From a virus (Duplodnaviria > Heunggongvirae > Uroviricota > Caudoviricetes), in the IMG/VR virus record IMGVR_UViG_2579778778_000007: a stretch of DNA of 34,897 bases. The stretch is one strand, 5' to 3'. Numbering within the stretch: the first letter of the stretch is position 1; every line of letters starts with the position of its first letter. Below, piece after piece: positions 24,709 to 34,897 of the stretch. The position numbers were made by a program, and so were the translations under genes. Under the pieces are notes generated by a model. That model was not told where the DNA came from, did not search any database, and saw only the letters and a list, made by a program, of their open reading frames with translations.

Positions 24709-25425
<717 letters not shown>

Positions 25426-25502
25426 GGCCAGCAACGGATCACAACAAACACATGGGGCGGCGGATTAAGGGTGATGGAGAATCGAAATAAGTTGAGGTCA
25501 AC

Positions 25503-25658
25503 ATGAACACGTTCAGCATAATCGCGATACCTTTTTTTGCCCTTTCAGTGGTTCTGTTGACTCTTGGCGCTACCAGGAAGAACCAAGCCAGCTTCATCGT
25601 TGGCGGCGTGTTTATGGCGTCATGCGTGGTTAATGCCATTATCGGCATGTCTCTTTGA
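25503..25658 (+). CDS. Hypothetical small hydrophobic protein (51 aa, two predicted membrane helices), below ORF-track cutoff
   Basis: Hand-translated MNTFSIIAIPFFALSVVLLTLGATRKNQASFIVGGVFMASCVVNAIIGMSL; SD GAGG 5 nt upstream; 78 nt downstream of cI stop. Confidence 0.4.
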   Translation: MNTFSIIAIPFFALSVVLLTLGATRKNQASFIVGGVFMASCVVNAIIGMSL

Positions 25659-25850
25659 GCGCTATGAGATCAGGCATCCTCGTTACTTTGTCATGTGTGA
25701 CAGCCTGGTATGCACTCTGCGAGCTTTGATGTGGTTTACCACTTTAATAGTCACCGTATCACTAAACTGATTAGCTTTACTCATACTCTTGTGGATTCGC
25801 TATTTCTGATGTCAATGCAAAAAAATACTAAGGAAACAAAAAGGATACTT

Positions 25851-26117
25851 ATGTCAGATAACACTATTAAAATCATACCTCAGCACATGACCGCCACATC
25901 AGTTCTTATTACGCCTGATCGTGCTGAAACAATCATTACTTTTTACCGCCATGAATTTGAGCATCACATGCAGTCTGATGAGCAAGGAAATAATAGCTTC
26001 CAAGTAAAAGTTGAGTTGACCCCTAACATGTCAGTCTCAATGAGCCCGGATCAAGCTGTTGCATTAGTAAAATCATTACAGGTAGCTCTCAGGGATAATG
26101 GGCTATGGAAAGACTGA
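25851..26117 (+). CDS. Hypothetical protein (88 aa from ATG 25851)
   Basis: ORF track 25710-26117; ATG at 25851 preceded by AAAAAGGA; no recognised homology. Confidence 0.5.
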   Translation: MSDNTIKIIPQHMTATSVLITPDRAETIITFYRHEFEHHMQSDEQGNNSFQVKVELTPNMSVSMSPDQAVALVKSLQVALRDNGLWKD

Positions 26118-26755
26118 AGCCAGTTTCTTCAGTTCAACCTACCTCAGGAACAACATCATCAGTTCTTCCAAGTATTATAGTTAGTGCAACCCTAGCAGCG
26201 ACAACCGTTTCTCCTTATGGGGATCCATCTCAGTACCAAAGTATTGGTATTGATGCTAAGGTATCAAATAGAGTTTCATACGCCATGGACGAAACGGGTT
26301 TGCGCCCAAGTAAGGAAGATGTAGCGATGAAGAGTGATACCCTGGAGGTAAGCGTGAGCGGAATGTCCAGAGAAGAACTTGACGCAAAGCTTTCACAAAA
26401 CAAATCAGAGGTAGAGTCTATTGCTGCGGAAATGCGTCGCGAATCAGCTGACTTTAAAACCTATTATACTCAGCAATTTTCTTCTATTGAGAGAGGTATT
26501 GCTGAAATTAAAGGTGAAATCGGCGGTTTGAAAACGGGACTTACAACGACTCAGTGGGCGATGGCCGTTGGCTTGACTTTAGTTACTGTGATTCTGTCTG
26601 GCGTGATGTTAGCCTCAAGTTGGATTATCTCCGGCAATGACAAGTCACCATCAGTAACCAGCCCGGCTCCAATTATAATACAGGTACCGACACAGCAACC
26701 ATTAACGAGCGCTCCAACTAACCAATCGTCATCACAACAAGCTCCTAAGCAATAA
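26105..26755 (+). CDS. Hypothetical membrane-anchored protein: Ser/Thr-rich N-terminus, coiled coil, one transmembrane helix, Pro/Gln/Ser-rich tail (alternative start ATG 26327)
   Basis: ORF track 216 aa; 13-nt overlap with upstream gene; hydrophobic WAMAVGLTLVTVILSGVMLASSWII. Confidence 0.6.
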   Translation: MERLKPVSSVQPTSGTTSSVLPSIIVSATLAATTVSPYGDPSQYQSIGIDAKVSNRVSYAMDETGLRPSKEDVAMKSDTLEVSVSGMSREELDAKLSQNKSEVESIAAEMRRESADFKTYYTQQFSSIERGIAEIKGEIGGLKTGLTTTQWAMAVGLTLVTVILSGVMLASSWIISGNDKSPSVTSPAPIIIQVPTQQPLTSAPTNQSSSQQAPKQ

Positions 26756-26760
26756 ATAAA

Positions 26761-26787
26761 CCCGGCCACCGCGCCGGGTTTTCTTTG
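26761..26787 (+). terminator. Rho-independent terminator ending the cI-side operon just before OL
   Basis: CCCGGC-cac cgc-GCCGGG followed by TTTTCTTT, 6 nt after stop codon. Confidence 0.6.
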
Positions 26788-26938
26788 CCTCACGTTCGCC
26801 CCAAAACACATAACCAATTGTATTTATTTGAAAATTAATAGATACAACTCACTAAACATCGCAATTCAGATCTCTCGATCACCTCCCAAGCCACACACCC
26901 CTGCAAAAAAAATAAATCTATATAAAAAACATACAGAT

Positions 26939-27001
26939 AACCATCTGCGGTGATAAATTATCTCTGGCGGTGTTGACATAAATACCACTGGCGGTGATAC
27001 T
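26939..27001. promoter_or_regulatory. Lambda-type left operator OL3 (26939-26955), OL2 (26959-26975), OL1 (26983-26999) and pL (-35 TTGACA 26973-26978, -10 GATACT 26996-27001)
   Basis: Matches remembered lambda OL/pL; similarity to lambda ends about 15 nt after the -10. Confidence 0.85.
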
Positions 27002-27069
27002 AAACACATCAGCAGGACGCACTACTCACCAGGGCGGTGAATATACAACGATTCGAATATGAATCTACG

Positions 27070-27249: not shown

Positions 27250-27633
27250 ATGACACGCAGAACTCAGTTCAAAGGCAATTCACGTTCTCGTCGTCGTGAG
27301 CGTTTAAAGGCAAAGGCATTAGCTAACGGCGTACTGGCCCGCGAAGAAGCAATAAGTTCAGAAGTATTACACCGCCCTACTCTAAGCAGAGCGCAGATTC
27401 AGGCTAAAGGTACTCACGAAACGCCTGAGCGCATAGAAGACGCTAAGCCAATTAAGTTCATGGCACAGGACGTGATCTGGCAACAGAAAGAATACAGACG
27501 CAATCTGGAGAGAGCGGCCATTGTGTACGCGAATGAGTTTGGGCATAGGCAACCAGAAACTGGTGTATGTCTTCCAAATGTAGCTCTTTACGCGGCAGGC
27601 TACAGGAAATCAAAACAACTGACAGCGAGGTAA
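27250..27633 (+). CDS. N: N antiterminator, P22 gp24 / phage 21-type (not lambda-type)
   Basis: ORF track 127 aa; Arg-rich N-terminus; C-terminus LPNVALYAAGYRKSKQLTAR resembles remembered P22 gp24 tail; SD AGGAGG 5 nt upstream. Confidence 0.75.
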   Translation: MTRRTQFKGNSRSRRRERLKAKALANGVLAREEAISSEVLHRPTLSRAQIQAKGTHETPERIEDAKPIKFMAQDVIWQQKEYRRNLERAAIVYANEFGHRQPETGVCLPNVALYAAGYRKSKQLTAR

Positions 27634-27636
27634 GTG

Positions 27637-27861
27637 ATGAATCAGACATACATTCCATCATGCTTGAGAAATCTGCCAAAGCAGAAAGCAAAGCCCCGCA
27701 AGCAAGCCATAAAGGACGCTAAGGCAGAGGTTATTGATCAAGCAATACAATTGCTCAGGGAGGAGTTAAGAAGTGGCAAGCTCGAAGGAATGATGATGCC
27801 CTATCAGCGCGGATATCTATCGGCGATTAGTAAGTTGGAAGTATTGAAGAGTGAATTATGA
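27637..27861 (+). CDS. Hypothetical early-left protein
   Basis: ORF track 27634-27861; ATG 27637 with SD GAGG. Confidence 0.5.
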   Translation: MNQTYIPSCLRNLPKQKAKPRKQAIKDAKAEVIDQAIQLLREELRSGKLEGMMMPYQRGYLSAISKLEVLKSEL

Positions 27862-28175
27862 ACTATCTGGAATTTCCGGATGGTTCATTGTTTTGGCAGC
27901 AAACCACTTATTTGAGGTGGGATATGGAGTTTCATGAAAGTGCGATTTGTGATTTTCGCGCTAACGCAAATTCAGTAAAACCACAGCCAATTGCAGTTCT
28001 TTTTAAAACAATGGGTGCGTGGGCTGTTTTATGCTTCGCCGCTGACGACACTGACGCAAGAATGGCAATAGGCCAAGAGATGGAGATGGACCCGACAAAC
28101 GATGAATTCATAATTTATGGCGCTCCATCTAATTACTTACTTGATACCTGCAACATTTACAACAAGGCTGCCTGA
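27858..28175 (+). CDS. Hypothetical early-left protein
   Basis: ORF track 105 aa; ATGA overlap with upstream gene. Confidence 0.5.
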   Translation: MNYLEFPDGSLFWQQTTYLRWDMEFHESAICDFRANANSVKPQPIAVLFKTMGAWAVLCFAADDTDARMAIGQEMEMDPTNDEFIIYGAPSNYLLDTCNIYNKAA

Positions 28176-28543
28176 TGGTGGCCTTTATTTTTGGCATAAA
28201 CAATATTGGGGTAAAAATGAAAGTTTTAATGGTTTATGAAAATGTTCCAGAGTCGACTGAAATCTATATTTTTGATGCCAATGAAGATGAAGTTAACGAT
28301 TTAAAATTGTCTCACGGCAATTACACAAATGCTAATTGTGATGAAAGTATCGAAAAAGCACTATCACGTGTTCTTGTCAGAATCAGCGATCCAGAACATT
28401 GTGATAATGATTGGCTTTCTTATTGTGGAGCGGTAAAAACTGATGCAGGAAAATGGAGTAAAAGTAAAGTTGATAACTCAACTCCAATCATTATGAAAGA
28501 TAGTGATATTGAAATGGTAATAATAACCGGAATGATTGTGTAG
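28175..28543 (+). CDS. Hypothetical acidic protein (alternative start ATG 28217)
   Basis: ORF track 122 aa; AT-rich. Confidence 0.5.
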   Translation: MVAFIFGINNIGVKMKVLMVYENVPESTEIYIFDANEDEVNDLKLSHGNYTNANCDESIEKALSRVLVRISDPEHCDNDWLSYCGAVKTDAGKWSKSKVDNSTPIIMKDSDIEMVIITGMIV

Positions 28544-28649
28544 GATGCGAATAAGCGCTGTGTATTCATTCCAACGAGTGAATACACGGAGCAATGTCGC
28601 TCGTAACTAAACAGGAGACGACTTGTTCTGATTATTGGAAATCTTCTTT

Positions 28650-28910: not shown

Positions 28911-29077
28911 GTTTTACAGATAACTGGTCAGACGAAGAATTCATTCGTCAGATGAAAGAATTAATCGGTAACGAAGGAGATATTCATGTCACTTGCAACC
29001 ACAGTGAAGGAGAGCAAGTTACAGAGACGCATGTACACGCAGCAGGCGTTAATGTATCGCCAGAAGGGAGATCGTGA
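28907..29077 (+). CDS. Hypothetical protein at the kil position (56 aa)
   Basis: ORF track 28877-29077; ATG overlaps cIII stop (ATGA); overlaps the next candidate in another frame. Confidence 0.3.
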   Translation: MSFTDNWSDEEFIRQMKELIGNEGDIHVTCNHSEGEQVTETHVHAAGVNVSPEGRS

Positions 29078-29156
29078 AGGTGTTCGCGTATTTTTAAATG
29101 CGGCAAAGACTGAAGTATTAAATCAGCGTTATTTCCTTGGGCCGTGTCCATTCTGA
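28986..29156 (+). CDS. Hypothetical protein at the arf position (56 aa), immediately upstream of erf
   Basis: Hand-translated MSLATTVKESKLQRRMYTQQALMYRQKGDREGVRVFLNAAKTEVLNQRYFLGPCPF; strong SD GGAG 6 nt upstream. Confidence 0.4.
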   Translation: MSLATTVKESKLQRRMYTQQALMYRQKGDREGVRVFLNAAKTEVLNQRYFLGPCPF

Positions 29157-29166
29157 GATCAAACAT

Positions 29167-29772
29167 ATGAGCAAAGAATTTTATGCAAGGCTGGCAGCCA
29201 TTCAGGAGAATCTGAACGCGCCAAAGAATCAGTACAACTCATTCGGTAAATATAAATACAGAAGCTGCGAAGACATTCTTGAAGGAGTTAAGCCGTTACT
29301 GAATGGTCTGTTTTTATCAATCAGCGATGAAGTTGTGTTGATTGGTGATCGGTATTACGTGAAAGCCACGGCAACTATTACCGATGGCGAAAACAGTCAT
29401 ACGGCAACCGCTCTTGCACGAGAGGAAGAAAGCAAGAAAGGAATGGATTCTGCACAAGTTACGGGAGCTACAAGCTCTTATGCACGCAAGTATTGCCTCA
29501 ATGGTTTATTCGGCATTGATGATGCGAAAGATGCAGATACCGACGAGCATAAACATCAGCAGAACGCAGCAGCAAAGCAATCAAAACCATCACCTACGCC
29601 TGAACAGGTTCTAAAAGCATTCACTGACGCAGCAATGCAGAAAAACACCGTGGAAGAGCTTAAACAGGCGTTCGCCAAAGCGTGGAAGATGCTCGAAGGC
29701 ACACCGGAGCAGCACAAAGCGCAGGACGTTTACAACATCAAACGAGACGAATTAGAAGGAGCGGCTGCTTAA
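29167..29772 (+). CDS. erf: Erf single-strand annealing recombinase (P22 Erf-like)
   Basis: ORF track 29137-29772; from MSKEFYARLAAIQENLNAPKNQYNSFGKYKYRSCEDILEGVKP closely matches remembered P22 Erf. Confidence 0.9.
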   Translation: MSKEFYARLAAIQENLNAPKNQYNSFGKYKYRSCEDILEGVKPLLNGLFLSISDEVVLIGDRYYVKATATITDGENSHTATALAREEESKKGMDSAQVTGATSSYARKYCLNGLFGIDDAKDADTDEHKHQQNAAAKQSKPSPTPEQVLKAFTDAAMQKNTVEELKQAFAKAWKMLEGTPEQHKAQDVYNIKRDELEGAAA

Positions 29773-30155
29773 TGGCACATTCGATTACTGTAAGACTAAA
29801 CAAGCCCGCAAGAGAGTTTCAGGCCGGGGAAAATATCGGATTCAACATCCGTGCTGGCGTTCAGTATTACGATCGCCAGACAAAAAAGAAAGAATGGACA
29901 AACTACAGCGCCGTTGTAGTTGCCAAGCCGGGAGCGCAAGCGGATTACTACCGTAGTGTTCTTGTTGAAGGTGGCATTGTGGAAATTACCGGAGAAAACA
30001 TCAGGGTTGATGTTTATCAGGGGCAAAATGGTCAATCAATCACTCTTGAATTACTGAATGCAAAGATTGGATTTGCAGCTTCAGGAAATGGCCCGCAGCA
30101 GCAAAGTAGTAACCAGCAGAACACTCCTGTATACGACGATTCCATCCCATTCTGA
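29772..30155 (+). CDS. ssb: Single-stranded DNA-binding protein-like (short SSB with C-terminal DDSIPF tail)
   Basis: ORF track 29682-30155; ATG 29772 overlaps erf stop; C-terminal acidic tail ...DDSIPF characteristic of SSB. Confidence 0.65.
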   Translation: MAHSITVRLNKPAREFQAGENIGFNIRAGVQYYDRQTKKKEWTNYSAVVVAKPGAQADYYRSVLVEGGIVEITGENIRVDVYQGQNGQSITLELLNAKIGFAASGNGPQQQSSNQQNTPVYDDSIPF

Positions 30156-30178
30156 TTCAGAAAAATAAGGATTTAATC

Positions 30179-30475
30179 ATGCCAGCGCCTCTGTATGGTG
30201 CGGATGACCCGCGCCGTTGTTCCGGCAATTCCATATCGGAGGTGCTGGATAAATTCAGAAAAAACTACGACCGGATAATGTCGCTACCGCAGGAAACGAA
30301 AGAGGAAAAGGAATTTCGCCACTGTATATGGCTTGCAGAGAAAGAAGAACGCGAGCGAATTTACCAGACATCAATCCGACCATTCCGCAAAGCCACATAT
30401 ACCCACTTCCCTGAATATATCGACCCGCGCCTGCGTAATTACCGCTCACGCTATGGCGCTATCAGTAATGACTGA
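30179..30475 (+). CDS. Hypothetical protein (positional analogue of P22 anti-RecBCD abc genes; homology not verified)
   Basis: ORF track 98 aa. Confidence 0.45.
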
Positions 30476-30485
30476 GGAATTCACC

Positions 30486-30656
30486 ATGAGAGGACTTGCA
30501 TACAATCCCGGCATTCTTCCGGCAGAAATGATTATTCGCCAACGCGTAAAGCCAATGCCATCGAGAGAGGAATTGCTTAAGAGAAATTCTTTTCCGTCAG
30601 TGAATCAAAACAAATATCTGAATGCGATGTGGCGGAGTGGGAGGACTAACAAATGA
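30486..30656 (+). CDS. Hypothetical small protein
   Basis: ORF track 30333-30656; ATG 30486 with SD GAGG. Confidence 0.35.
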
Positions 30657-31339
30657 CCACTATAACCAAAGAGCGACTACTGACAATCAAGCAGTGGCGC
30701 GAAACATACGGACCTGGTAGCAACGTAGTGCTTCCAGCAGAAGAAGCGGAAGAGCTGGCACGGATTGCACTGGCATCACTGGAACGCGAACAGATTCGCC
30801 ACGAGCATGCCAAATGGTCTGACTCCACATTTGGCTGCGTTGGCCCCATTGGTCCACTGAAACACCTCTCAAAAGAGGCTCTGGAAGCCGCAGCAGAACC
30901 AGACGATCTTAGCGAGTGGGCTGATATGCAGTTTCTGTTGTGGGATGCACAGCGCCGTGCTGGCATCAGCGATGCTGAAATTACCGCTGCTATGGAAGAT
31001 AAATTGAAGATCAACATGGAGCGCCAGTGGCCTGAGCCAAAAGATGGTGAGCCTCGCTTGCACATTAAAGAACCCGGCAACTATCCGGTAACTCCGGATG
31101 GTTGGATAAGCTGTAGTGAGCGAATGCCAGAAATGGGAGAGCGACAATGCTATGTGTTAGCAGCTGACTTTAAAAACAACTACCCACCAAACATCCCCAA
31201 CACTCAGGTCGGCGTATATGGCGACTGGTTTAATGATGGCAATCCCACTTGGGATGACGGTGATGGCGAAGACCTGTATCTCAAAGAGGTAACCCACTGG
31301 ATGCCTCTACCAGAACCGCCTCGATTAAAGGAGCTATAA
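30653..31339 (+). CDS. Phage protein with N-terminal DUF550-like and C-terminal DUF551-like regions
   Basis: ORF track 228 aa; C-terminal ...[11 protein letters not shown] as remembered for DUF551 proteins. Confidence 0.5.
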
Positions 31340-31453
31340 TAGTGAACTATTATATCTATTTGTATTAAAAGAGTTTTTATAAAATAAATCTTCCAAAGCA
31401 TGTAAAAACACTGTTAATCTTAACGTGTGTGAAACGTGAAGAGAGGTGTTGAA

Positions 31454-31735
31454 ATGAGCATTCATGATTTGTGTGAAGATCAAGAGCAATGGGCTATGCA
31501 GACCCTTATGGGATCAGGAGTTCTTGCAAGGTGCAGAATCCATAACGATGTAATTTTAGACAGCGGAAATGATGCTTATTCTGCTTATAAATTAGGAACT
31601 TACCTATATCAAAAAGATAATAGCTGCAACTTATTCAATACTCTTACTGAAGCCCGCGACGCAATAAAGGATGCATATGAATCGTATTGTGGGATTGATG
31701 ATTGCCCACAATGCTCAAAATACATTGACGATTAA
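31454..31735 (+). CDS. Hypothetical protein (AT-rich moron)
   Basis: ORF track 31436-31735; ATG 31454 with SD GAGAGGTG 5 nt upstream. Confidence 0.5.
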   Translation: MSIHDLCEDQEQWAMQTLMGSGVLARCRIHNDVILDSGNDAYSAYKLGTYLYQKDNSCNLFNTLTEARDAIKDAYESYCGIDDCPQCSKYIDD

Positions 31736-31752
31736 TAATATGAACAAGTAAC

Positions 31753-31783
31753 AATCCTCGCACTCGCGGGGATTTCTTTTATC
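31753..31783 (+). terminator. Rho-independent terminator
   Basis: 9-bp stem AATCCTCGC/GCGGGGATT (one G-U) followed by TCTTTTAT. Confidence 0.55.
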
Positions 31784-31822
31784 TGAACTTGCTACGGCGA
31801 ATTTTGTTTTATGGAGATGATT

Positions 31823-32122
31823 ATGGTCTGTTCAACATTAAACCCTCTAACGTTACAGAAATACCAGCAAGACCCTGAAGATTTATGCTCACTGTGTGGC
31901 GGAAATCATGGTAAAGCCGCCATGATCGAATGTAAGGACAAAATCCACATATGCCTTAATTGCGTTGATGTCCTCGTTGATATCAAAAATGAGAGAGAAG
32001 ATAAAAAGCGTAGCGAGGCTATTCGCGCATTAGATTCATGGATGCGAGATGGGTATAGTGCTGCGCAAATTTATGACTTCGCAATATCAAAAGGCGAAAT
32101 ACCAGGAGTGCGCATCGAATAA
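31823..32122 (+). CDS. Hypothetical protein with CxxC...CxxC zinc-ribbon-like motif
   Basis: ORF track 31811-32122; ATG 31823 has SD GGAG 6 nt upstream; CSLCGG...CLNC. Confidence 0.5.
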   Translation: MVCSTLNPLTLQKYQQDPEDLCSLCGGNHGKAAMIECKDKIHICLNCVDVLVDIKNEREDKKRSEAIRALDSWMRDGYSAAQIYDFAISKGEIPGVRIE

Positions 32123-32162
32123 GACGTAACCAATATTCGAATTGAAGAACTGAAAGAACACC

Positions 32163-32187
32163 AAGCCGCCTGATGGCGGTTTTTTCT
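32163..32187 (+). terminator. Rho-independent terminator upstream of xis
   Basis: GCCGCC-TGAT-GGCGGT followed by TTTTTCTT. Confidence 0.6.
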
Positions 32188-32212
32188 TGCGTGTAATTGC
32201 GGAGACTTTGCG

Positions 32213-32431
32213 ATGTACTTGACACTTCAGGAGTGGAACGCTCGCCAGCGACGCCCAAGAAGCCTTGAAACAGTTCGTCGATGGGTGCGCGAATGCAGGA
32301 TATTCCCTCCTCCGGTTAAGGATGGAAGAGAGTATCTGTTCCACGAATCAGCGGTAAAGGTTGACTTAAATCGACCAGTAACAGGTAGCCTTTTGAAGAG
32401 GATCAGAAATGGGAAGAAGGCGAAGTCATGA
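32213..32431 (+). CDS. xis: Excisionase, lambda Xis
   Basis: ORF track 72 aa; matches remembered lambda Xis; overlaps int start. Confidence 0.9.
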   Translation: MYLTLQEWNARQRRPRSLETVRRWVRECRIFPPPVKDGREYLFHESAVKVDLNRPVTGSLLKRIRNGKKAKS

Positions 32432-33479
32432 GCGCCGGGATTTACCCCCTAACCTTTATATAAGAAACAATGGATATTACTGCTACAGGGACCCAAGGAC
32501 GGGTAAAGAGTTTGGATTAGGCCGAGACAGGAGGATAGCAATCACTGAAGCTATACAGGCCAACATTGAGTTATTTTCAGGACACAAACACAAGCCTCTG
32601 ACAGCGAGAATCAACAGTGATAATTCTGTTACGTTACATTCATGGCTTGATCGCTACGAAAAAATCCTCGCCAGCAGAGGAATCAAGCAGAAGACACTCA
32701 TAAATTACATGAGCAAAATTAAAGCAATAAGGAGGGGTCTGCCTGATGCTCCACTTGAAGACATCACCACAAAAGAAATTGCGGCAATGCTCAATGGATA
32801 CATAGACGAGGGCAAGGCTGCGTCAGCCAAGTTAATCAGATCAACACTGAGCGATGCATTCCGAGAGGCAATAGCTGAAGGCCATATAACAACAAACCCT
32901 GTCGCTGCCACTCGCGCAGCAAAATCAGAGGTAAGGAGATCAAGACTTACGGCTGACGAATACCTGAAAATTTATCAAGCAGCAGAATCATCACCATGTT
33001 GGTTAAGACTTGCAATGGAACTGGCTGTTGTTACCGGACAGCGAGTTGGTGATTTATGCGAAATGAAGTGGTCTGATATCGTAGATGGATATCTTTACGT
33101 CGAGCAAAGCAAAACAGGCGTAAAAATTGCCATCCCTACAACATTGCATGTTGATGCTCTCGGAATATCAATGAAGGAAACACTTGATAAATGCAAAGAG
33201 ATTCTTGGCGGAGAAACCATAATTGCATCTACTCGTCGTGAACCGCTTTCATCCGGCACAGTATCAAGGTATTTTATGCGCGCACGAAAAGCATCAGGTC
33301 TTTCCTTCGAAGGGGATCCGCCTACCTTTCACGAGTTGCGCAGTTTGTCTGCAAGACTCTATGAGAAGCAGATAAGCGATAAGTTTGCTCAACATCTTCT
33401 CGGGCATAAGTCGGACACCATGGCATCACAGTATCGTGATGACAGAGGCAGGGAGTGGGACAAAATTGAAATCAAATAA
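32409..33479 (+). CDS. int: Integrase, lambda Int (tyrosine recombinase)
   Basis: ORF track 356 aa; essentially identical to remembered lambda Int. Confidence 0.95.
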   Translation: MGRRRSHERRDLPPNLYIRNNGYYCYRDPRTGKEFGLGRDRRIAITEAIQANIELFSGHKHKPLTARINSDNSVTLHSWLDRYEKILASRGIKQKTLINYMSKIKAIRRGLPDAPLEDITTKEIAAMLNGYIDEGKAASAKLIRSTLSDAFREAIAEGHITTNPVAATRAAKSEVRRSRLTADEYLKIYQAAESSPCWLRLAMELAVVTGQRVGDLCEMKWSDIVDGYLYVEQSKTGVKIAIPTTLHVDALGISMKETLDKCKEILGGETIIASTRREPLSSGTVSRYFMRARKASGLSFEGDPPTFHELRSLSARLYEKQISDKFAQHLLGHKSDTMASQYRDDRGREWDKIEIK

Positions 33480-33567
33480 TGATTTTATTTTGACTGATAG
33501 TGACCTGTTCGTTGCAACAAATTGATAAGCAATGCTTTTTTATAATGCCTACTTAGTATAAAAAAGC
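33480..33567. other. Prophage attL: lambda P' arm (33480-33552) and 15-bp core (33553-33567, GCTTTTTTATACTAA on minus strand) joined to bacterial arm
   Basis: Reverse complement reads ...GAAGCCTGCTTTTTTATACTAAGTAGGCATTATAAAAAAGCATTGCTTATCAATTTG..., matching remembered lambda att sequence with one difference. Confidence 0.85.
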
Positions 33568-33613
33568 AGGCTTCAACGGATTCATTTTTCTATTTCATAG
33601 CCCGGAGCAACCT

Positions 33614-34897
33614 GTGAACACATTTTCAGTTTCCCGTCTGGCGCTGGCATTGGCTTTTGGCGTGACGCTGACCGCCTGTAGCTCAACCCCGCCCGATCAA
33701 CGTCCTTCTGATCAAACCGCGCCTGGTACCTCTTCTCGCCCGATTCTGTCGGCAAAAGAAGCGCAGAATTTCGATGCTCAACACTATTTTGCATCCCTGA
33801 CACCAGGTGCTGCAGCGTGGAATCCTTCCCCGATTACCCTGCCTGCGCAACCTGACTTTGTTGTCGGCCCGGCGGGCACTCAAGGTGTAACGCATACCAC
33901 GATTCAGGCGGCGGTAGATGCGGCAATTATCAAGCGTACCAACAAGCGCCAGTATATTGCCGTGATGCCTGGTGAGTATCAGGGAACGGTATATGTCCCT
34001 GCCGCTCCGGGTGGAATTACTCTGTACGGTACAGGTGAAAAACCGATTGATGTGAAGATTGGGCTTTCCCTTGATGGTGGCATGAGCCCTGCCGACTGGC
34101 GTCACGACGTCAACCCGCGCGGCAAATATATGCCAGGTAAACCAGCGTGGTATATGTACGATAGCTGCCAGAGCAAACGCAGCGACAGTATCGGTGTTCT
34201 CTGCTCTGCGGTCTTCTGGTCACAAAACAATGGCCTGCAACTGCAAAATCTGACCATCGAAAACACGCTGGGCGATAGCGTAGATGCAGGTAACCATCCG
34301 GCGGTGGCACTGCGTACTGATGGTGACCAGGTACAGATTAACAACGTTAACATTCTCGGTCGTCAGAACACCTTCTTTGTCACCAACAGCGGTGTGCAGA
34401 ACCGTCTGGAAACCAACCGTCAGCCGCGTACGCTGGTGACCAACAGCTACATTGAAGGGGATGTGGATATCGTTTCTGGTCGCGGCGCAGTGGTGTTCGA
34501 TAACACCGAATTCCGCGTGGTGAACTCACGTACTCAGCAAGAAGCGTATGTGTTTGCACCGGCTACGCTGTCCAACATTTACTACGGTTTCCTCGCCGTA
34601 AACAGCCGTTTCAATGCTTTCGGTGATGGTGTGGCGCAACTGGGCCGCTCGCTGGATGTTGATGCCAATACCAACGGTCAGGTGGTGATCCGTGATAGCG
34701 CCATCAACGAAGGTTTTAACACGGCTAAACCGTGGGCCGATGCGGTGATCTCTAATCGTCCGTTTGCGGGTAATACCGGCAGCGTAGATGATAACGACGA
34801 AATACAGCGCAATCTGAATGACACTAACTACAACCGCATGTGGGAATACAATAACCGCGGCGTGGGTAGTAAAGTGGTTGCAGAGGCGAAGAAGTAA
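33614..34897 (+). CDS. ybhC: Host outer-membrane lipoprotein YbhC (pectinesterase-family protein)
   Basis: ORF track 427 aa; lipoprotein signal with lipobox LTAC; the host gene that flanks attB-lambda. Confidence 0.85.
   Translation: MNTFSVSRLALALAFGVTLTACSSTPPDQRPSDQTAPGTSSRPILSAKEAQNFDAQHYFASLTPGAAAWNPSPITLPAQPDFVVGPAGTQGVTHTTIQAAVDAAIIKRTNKRQYIAVMPGEYQGTVYVPAAPGGITLYGTGEKPIDVKIGLSLDGGMSPADWRHDVNPRGKYMPGKPAWYMYDSCQSKRSDSIGVLCSAVFWSQNNGLQLQNLTIENTLGDSVDAGNHPAVALRTDGDQVQINNVNILGRQNTFFVTNSGVQNRLETNRQPRTLVTNSYIEGDVDIVSGRGAVVFDNTEFRVVNSRTQQEAYVFAPATLSNIYYGFLAVNSRFNAFGDGVAQLGRSLDVDANTNGQVVIRDSAINEGFNTAKPWADAVISNRPFAGNTGSVDDNDEIQRNLNDTNYNRMWEYNNRGVGSKVVAEAKK

Follow-up and report, generated by a model that had tools for sequence, protein, structure and literature searches.

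The segment between the recombination genes and xis of a lambda/P22-type hybrid prophage, read as the probable xis-proximal variable end of the lambdoid exo-xis region

The AT-rich segment at positions 31340–32190 of the prophage analysed here (IMG/VR record IMGVR_UViG_2579778778_000007; by "the window" we mean the whole stretch of 34,897 bp) is best read as the variable part of the lambdoid exo-xis (ea) region that lies next to xis, and as belonging to the N-antiterminated early-left operon; we put the probability of this reading at roughly 0.8. The segment carries two small genes, here called gene 1 and gene 2, the first belonging to the family of lambda Ea8.5 and the second to that of ST933Wp03/L0063 of phage 933W, and each is followed by a predicted intrinsic terminator (T1 and T2). 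A first-pass annotation, made from the letters of the sequence, had described the same segment as moron-like cargo, independently acquired and possibly expressed in the lysogen. The region is already known as lambda's and 933W's exo-xis region, and both genes and both terminators are to be found in databases and papers; the only additions made here are the assignment of a predicted ClpX-type zinc finger to the 933W-type family and an explicit reading of a remnant of lambda orf55 behind gene 2.

The prophage as a whole is a three-way hybrid, with P22-like virion and replication genes (IME10, ∼95%), the immunity region of lambda (cI/cro/oR/oL) and the int, xis and att functions of lambda; its N protein is not of the lambda type, and its cII is likewise of a non-lambda type. 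It is integrated beside ybhC, at the lambda attachment site, with attR and then host ybhC lying 3′ of int. The features to which we refer are collected in Table 1, where J1 denotes the junction that contains T1; the corresponding junction at T2 is called J2.

Table 1. Coordinates in the window of the segment next to xis, its neighbours and other early-left features.
Feature	Position	Strand	Basis or remark
rex-position ORF, 51 aa, hydrophobic	25503-25658	+	
rex-position ORF, 135 aa	25710-26117	+	
rex-position ORF, 216 aa, C-terminal hydrophobic stretch	26105-26755	+	
pL	26973-27001	+	TTGACA-17-GATACT (promoter scan)
N antiterminator gene	27250-27633	+	Pfam N_peptide, E=2e-15
erf	29167-29772	+	
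ssb	29772-30155	+	
abc2	30179-30475	+	
dATP/dGTP-pyrophosphohydrolase + DUF551 gene	30653-31339	+	
AT-rich spacer before gene 1	31340-31453	+	114 bp, 27% GC
Gene 1, Ea8.5 family, 93 aa	31454-31735	+	Pfam, PDB 2M7A
T1, predicted terminator hairpin and T-tract	31753-31783	+	Equals lambda t3
Rest of junction J1: weakened t4 copy, T-rich run, GGAG ribosome-binding site	31788-31822	+	
Gene 2, 933W ST933Wp03/L0063 family, 99 aa	31823-32122	+	Lambda orf55 slot
Lambda orf55 remnant, non-coding, last 17 codons	32123-32173	+	Alignment and orf55 translation
T2, predicted terminator hairpin and T-tract	32163-32187	+	Equals lambda t5
xis, lambda-type	32213-32431	+	Pfam Exc E=4e-41; 98.3% identity to lambda
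int, lambda-type	32409-33479	+	98.3% identity to lambda

The list of open reading frames and the sequence itself place two small + strand genes with Shine-Dalgarno sequences where the first-pass annotation had put them. Gene 1 has GAGAGG 7 nt 5′ of its ATG (the program-called open reading frame begins at the GTG at 31436), and gene 2 has GGAG at 31813–31816, 6 nt upstream of its start. An alternative start of gene 2 at 31811 (MEMI..., as in the 933W annotation) was rejected because the conserved GGAG would lie inside the gene and because the start of lambda orf55 is at the position equivalent to 31823. The open reading frames on the minus strand within the segment (38–85 aa) were also set aside; all of them overlap well-supported + strand genes, and they are without support of their own. 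A search of Rfam at E≤1 over 30500–33700 returned only a chance miRNA match, with no known RNA family in the junctions.

Gene 1 is matched by Pfam PF20735 (Lambda_ea8_5) at 56.2 bits, against a cutoff of 27, over residues 8–93 of 93, and by phrog_6325 at E=4e-56. Its product aligns with lambda Ea8.5 at equal length (93 residues) and without gaps, at 41% identity, and agrees with the PDB 2M7A chain at 92 of 93 residues, Y42S being the sole difference; nothing of substance sets it apart from that prophage protein. An identical protein, WP_000022062.1, is called 'Ea8.5 family phage-derived protein' by RefSeq in some genomes. These comparisons establish gene 1, at the level of sequence, as a member of the Ea8.5 family of homeodomain/zinc-finger proteins. 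Lambda Ea8.5 has two prophage homologues of solved structure, and it is these that revealed the hybrid homeodomain/zinc-finger fold (Kwan et al. 2013, cited in PMC8614690); reports of yeast two-hybrid partners and of an effect on cell division concern only the lambda protein itself (PMC8614690). Gene 1 stands shortly upstream of xis, as lambda ea8.5 does, and the same arrangement is seen in other E. coli prophages; this variant of the gene is present in 111 of 5426 complete E. coli genomes, and its usual partner is orf55.

The marked AT-richness that had drawn attention to the segment was confirmed by GC profiling, with 38.4% GC for 31340–32190 versus 46.6% prophage-wide, a value within the lowest 0.8% of 851-bp prophage windows. 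Two more stretches of the prophage, at ∼27800–28600 and ∼1226–2100, are equally AT-rich. Because the GC content of lambda ea8.5 is itself 38.7%, the low GC is a trait of the ea8.5 family and not a mark of recent foreign origin. The spacer in front of gene 1 has no counterpart in lambda by blastn and no stable fold (z = −0.23); spacer and gene 1 travel together, being 99–100% identical as a unit in 91 E. coli genomes.

All plausible genes from N to int are on the + strand, and the genes of the segment lie 4.5–5 kb downstream of pL and N on that same strand. The oL/pL region (26759–27040) is 89% identical to that of lambda, and cro-oR-cI is 97.7% identical. A scan for sigma-70-like promoters that finds both pL and pR gave nothing on the + strand from 28913 to 33439 that reached 9/12, although such a scan misses weak or activator-dependent promoters, pRM and pI among those not picked up; when relaxed it gave only 8/12 matches at 31324–31353, a density that does not exceed the 2.4 per kb of the background. 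The exo-xis genes are transcribed early from pL, and the block of them nearest to xis varies in both the number and the kind of its genes (PMC8614690, PMC4195576); lambda ea8.5 in particular has been reported as a pL-transcribed early gene (PMC4195576).

These observations bear on an alternative reading, in which one or both genes form an independently acquired and autonomous promoter-terminator cassette, expressed from the repressed prophage to the benefit of the lysogen. Morons of lambdoid phages are said, by Hendrix and colleagues, to be promoter-gene-terminator units, and the segment is like them in consisting of small accessory genes of deviant composition (the low GC just given), with a predicted intrinsic terminator behind each gene, and in its patchy spread: gene 2 is found in 316 of the 5426 complete E. 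coli genomes (∼6%), and both genes occur together in only seven. The replacement of orf55 by gene 2, described below, also speaks for acquisition. The segment is unlike morons, however, in that no promoter-like site was detected by a scan capable of detecting pL and pR, in that it lies in the early-left operon and not in a late or structural region, and in that its ribosome-binding site and both of its terminators are common to lambda's own ea8.5 and orf55. Moreover, gene 2 has taken the exact place of another ORF and has not been inserted between two genes that are neighbours in other phages; gene 1, for its part, is homologous to lambda ea8.5 and syntenic with it, and lambda ea8.5 is a reported pL-transcribed early gene (PMC4195576) that is equally low in GC. 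We therefore regard the cassette reading as very unlikely, and lysogenic expression of the genes appears unlikely from their sequence context. Of the first-pass annotation's notion of independently acquired cargo, what stands is the accessory and mosaic nature of the segment, its distinct composition and the exchange that brought gene 2 in; what falls away is a cassette with signals of its own, since the ribosome-binding site and terminators are those of lambda and promoter prediction gave it no promoter. Nor does the segment stand apart from the conserved lambdoid early-left backbone, for the most part, given that homology searching makes gene 1 a homologue of lambda ea8.5 both in position and in sequence.

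At the position of lambda rexA/rexB (25425–26759), between a cI that is 97.7% identical to that of lambda and oL/pL, there are three unrelated + strand open reading frames (Table 1); a Pfam scan of the 135-aa and 216-aa products gave no match. This is the expected place for lysogen-expressed exclusion or defence cargo, and these open reading frames are better moron or defence candidates than the segment at 31340–32190.

The relationship of the segment to lambda can be followed in two blastn matches. Window 31689–31821 corresponds to lambda 29420–29288 at 81%, covering the 3′ end of ea8.5 and the spacer up to the orf55 start, and window 32122–33567 corresponds to lambda 29169–27724 at 98.3%, running from the final ∼50 nt of orf55 through T2, xis and int to attP. 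The lambda annotation reads ea8.5 - orf55 (lambdap35) - xis - int, and the two matches therefore give the order ea8.5-T1-orf55-T2-xis in lambda and ea8.5-like-T1-gene 2-T2-xis in the window. One stretch, AGACGTAACC...GCCGCCTGATGGCGGTTTTTT, is shared at 100% identity by lambda, 933W, E. coli FT130 and the window. In lambda it encodes the C-terminus of Orf55 (DVTNIRIEELKEHQAA, then the stop), with the stop codon in the loop of T2, and in the window, 933W and FT130 the same stretch falls after the stop codon of gene 2. Gene 2 has therefore replaced orf55 codons 1–39 exactly from the ATG, and the end of orf55 persists as a non-coding remnant before T2; for 933W, 'a portion of orf55' close to xis had already been remarked on (Donaldson 2021, PMC8614690).

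The segment thus shares with the exo-xis end of lambda the gene order, the strand, the low GC of the ea8.5 gene and the position downstream of pL and N, with a T1/t4/Shine-Dalgarno junction that is ∼95% identical, a T2 and orf55 tail that are 100% identical and xis/int that are 98% identical. It differs in that orf55 codons 1–39 have been swapped for an unrelated 99-codon zinc-finger gene, in that t4 is weakened, and in that the upstream genes are of the P22 type (erf, ssb, abc2, dATP/dGTP-pyrophosphohydrolase-DUF551) instead of exo/bet/gam, orf60a–orf73 and ea22. The part from T1 through gene 2 and the orf55 remnant to T2 (31749–32188) is 97.3% identical in nucleotide sequence to phage 933W, in which, as in many Stx phages, the same gene lies directly upstream of xis and is annotated as hypothetical. 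933W is like the window in having gene 2 immediately before the excisionase gene, but its upstream neighbour is an ASCH-domain gene and not an Ea8.5 homologue, and its xis/int are of an unrelated type.

The terminator-like hairpin and T-tract that had been claimed behind each gene were both found, and both fold better than shuffled sequences. T1 has a 9-bp stem (five GC) at 31753–31774 followed by TCTTTTAT, and T2 has an 8-bp stem (five GC) at 32163–32182 followed by TTTCTT; as isolated RNAs they are predicted to fold at −13.1 and −16.1 kcal/mol, with z = −3.7 and −2.95, respectively, versus dinucleotide shuffles. A scan of 6 kb returned 12 terminator-like sites, versus 5.9 ± 3.2 in shuffles, with T1 and T2 among the best three. 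T2 abuts a TTGC-N6-TTGC motif at 32187–32200, which we take to be the CII-dependent int promoter pI, given the 98% identity to lambda and the textbook lambda pI. Lambda, 933W and the window have one and the same T1 stem, from which that of E. coli FT130 departs by a single change at its base; T2 is 100% identical in all four. Behind T1, J1 contains a second hairpin (CTTGC-TACG-GCGAA) and then the GGAG of gene 2, and T1, this hairpin and the GGAG are near identical across lambda, 933W, FT130 and the window. Terminators t3, t4 and t5 have been predicted within lambda's exo-xis region with ERPIN and RNAmotif (Bloch et al. 2014, PMC4195576, Table 4), and sequence comparison with that table equates T1 with t3 and T2 with t5, the second hairpin of J1 being a weakened copy of t4; conservation is thus uneven along this junction.

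The T1 hairpin was sought by exact match in IMG/VR and was found at 120 loci or more. Among the matches listed, the gene upstream of T1 is an ASCH-domain gene in 32, a DUF551/EaA-type gene in 23 and an Ea8.5 homologue in 21, the rest being other genes, and the slot downstream of T1 is occupied by orf55 in about half of the loci, by gene 2 in ∼6, and by at least 10 other, unrelated ORF families; J1 with its GGAG precedes orf55 and these other families alike. The breakpoints among these listed matches directly follow one of three elements, namely the T1 T-tract, the second hairpin or the GGAG. At the other side of the slot, J2 adjoins three unrelated excisionase types, those of lambda, 933W and TorI. 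On this distribution the T1- and T2-bearing junctions are, as far as their sequences go, conserved boundaries within a mosaic, beside which many different small genes can stand, and not the private ends of a cassette; the pattern is the classic one of module exchange among lambdoid phages.

The slot families among the matches listed include one of 114 aa (MSDLAMKVLKWQ...) in ∼18 loci, one of 266 aa (MTIHFHGSPIWG...) in eight and one of 245 aa (MKNNVMKNGTID...) in five. Elsewhere in the prophage, a hairpin at 28159–28203 (AAGGCTGCCTGATGGTGGCCTT and TATTTTT) closely resembles T2, its loop containing a stop codon, as that of T2 does, and here the following start codon too; lambda has a 93%-identical counterpart at 34059–34103, just downstream of ral. 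The open reading frame that starts in this hairpin (28175–28543; 122 aa, 33% GC) is without a Pfam match, and is an AT-rich early-left accessory gene.

The conservation of the junctions could also mean that the hairpins are kept mainly as exchange linkers, or as elements for the processing or stability of the pL transcript, with termination being incidental. J1 and J2 are 95–100% identical amid unrelated flanking genes, and the orf55 remnant is 100% identical; among the matches listed, moreover, the breakpoints are right at the hairpin edges and T1 flanks many different genes. However, T1 and T2 have the canonical anatomy of intrinsic terminators, a GC-rich stem followed by a T-tract, on the transcribed strand only, there was no Rfam match in the search given above, and the high identity may simply mean recent recombination among E. 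coli prophages. We consider it unlikely that termination is incidental, and note that the roles of linker and terminator are compatible with one another.

Gene 2 does contain the CxxC...CxxC motif ascribed to it, in the form CxxC-x18-CxxC (C22-x2-C25 and C44-x2-C47). It matches phrog_3680 at E=5e-67, and an exhaustive HMMER search of 1.84 billion representatives gave 25 relatives at E≤0.001. In a 16-member alignment of the family the four cysteines (C22, C25, C44 and C47) are the sole invariant columns, and the full-length relatives have in common the CxxC-x18-CxxC motif and a C-terminal helical part. The family profile matches PDB 1OVX, the zinc-binding domain (ZBD) of ClpX, at E=6e-7, and six more ClpX chains at E<0.01; Pfam zf-C4_ClpX (PF06689) is matched by 14 of the 16 family members, with a best E of 1.5e-7, the window protein alone scoring 15.7 bits (E=0.014), which is below the cutoff of 27. 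Comparison of the family with ClpX by hhalign gave a probability of 96.7%, using a ClpX sequence that we presume to be accurate and that is consistent with the PDB alignments of the profile search. An AlphaFold model built on the 16-sequence alignment (pLDDT 81.6) has a small zinc knuckle and then a long helix; an earlier model, from a 5-sequence alignment and with a pLDDT of 54.5, was set aside. Searches of fold databases with the model gave no significant match, although the best Foldseek PDB matches, themselves not significant, include ClpX models and 2DS5 (target TM 0.68, 34% identity). The profile evidence identifies a predicted ClpX-type C4 zinc finger in the gene 2 family, which is a modest new addition to what was known of it.

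In the protein the predicted ClpX-type C4 zinc finger is N-terminal and a small helical module C-terminal, with a long helix between them. The C-terminal ∼40 residues (RKxEAIxALxxWxxxGYSxxQIYDLAIxKGEIPG) are also seen as a separate module on unrelated N-terminal domains of 140–215 residues, in the proteins that we designate P0029, P0031 and P0032 and also in P0019 and P0017; because this module is fused to unrelated N-terminal domains, gene 2 would appear to encode a two-module protein. Distant homologues of gene 2 in Enterobacter and Rosenbergiella prophages are located 1–3 genes upstream of xis/int (a locus search with a 6-member alignment gave three loci). We also observed a 94%-identical copy of gene 2 on a 2749-bp contig labelled as a Segatella copri MAG (Bacteroidota), which almost certainly reflects misbinned E. 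coli prophage DNA rather than a true extension of host range.

The likeness to ClpX raises the question of whether ClpX is a target. The N-terminal ZBD of ClpX (PF06689; 1OVX, 2DS5) has the identical C4 spacing and then a helix, and the similarity at profile level is significant over ∼40 residues; gene 2 is unlike ClpX in being a free-standing protein of 99 aa, with no AAA+ module and with an extra C-terminal helical module. The protein might therefore be a free-standing mimic of the ZBD that pairs with ClpX, or competes for docking adaptors or substrates (SspB, lambda O-type replication proteins), and so alters early ClpXP proteolysis. Besides the spacing, the two share a CSxCG...IC..C..L...I motif, and the matches of the family profile to ClpX ZBD chains (E=6e-7 to 5e-6), those of 14 of the 16 members to zf-C4_ClpX, the hhalign result and the presence of ClpX models and 2DS5 among the best, if not significant, Foldseek matches all point in the same direction. 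The treble-clef zinc finger is, however, a generic dimerisation and binding module, and homology of fold does not make ClpX the target; the window protein is below the Pfam threshold (15.7 versus 27 bits), the fold searches gave no significant match, and a literature search on L0063/933W, on small proteins of prophages that contain the ClpX zinc-binding domain and on zf-C4_ClpX found nothing relevant on such a protein. We consider a mimic of this kind improbable. It is a still more doubtful proposal that gene 2 and its enterobacterial prophage relatives are early decoys of the ClpX docking domain, made from pL within minutes of infection or induction, that re-route ClpXP proteolysis, for instance so that the phage replication initiator is stabilised or SspB-delivered substrates are blocked.

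To return to the exo-xis reading, both genes would be transcribed from pL as distal members of the early-left operon, with N-modified polymerase reading through T1 and T2. Transcription from pL by such polymerase implies that the two proteins would be made early after infection or induction, and that the genes would be silent in the repressed lysogen. At T1 and T2, polymerase without the N modification would be halted ahead of xis and int. Since phages that are otherwise unrelated have these two hairpins in nearly the same form, they may also offer stretches of homology for the exchange of small accessory genes. The products of gene 1 and gene 2 are most likely, by analogy with other exo-xis genes, small proteins that depend on zinc and that regulate or bind proteins of the host or the phage, by which they may tune the lysis-lysogeny decision, an analogy that extrapolates from phenotypes seen on plasmid overexpression of the whole region.

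As found, the segment is an instance of textbook lambdoid mosaic architecture, and as such it matters little. The orf55 remnant and the hairpin junctions nonetheless show cleanly, in a dated case, how one ORF was replaced by another at conserved boundaries beside xis, and the predicted ClpX-type zinc finger of the 933W-type gene offers something testable about an exo-xis gene carried by phages of clinical relevance. If the proposal of ClpX decoys were true, these would represent a new class of phage-encoded protease modulator, situated beside xis in Stx phages such as 933W.
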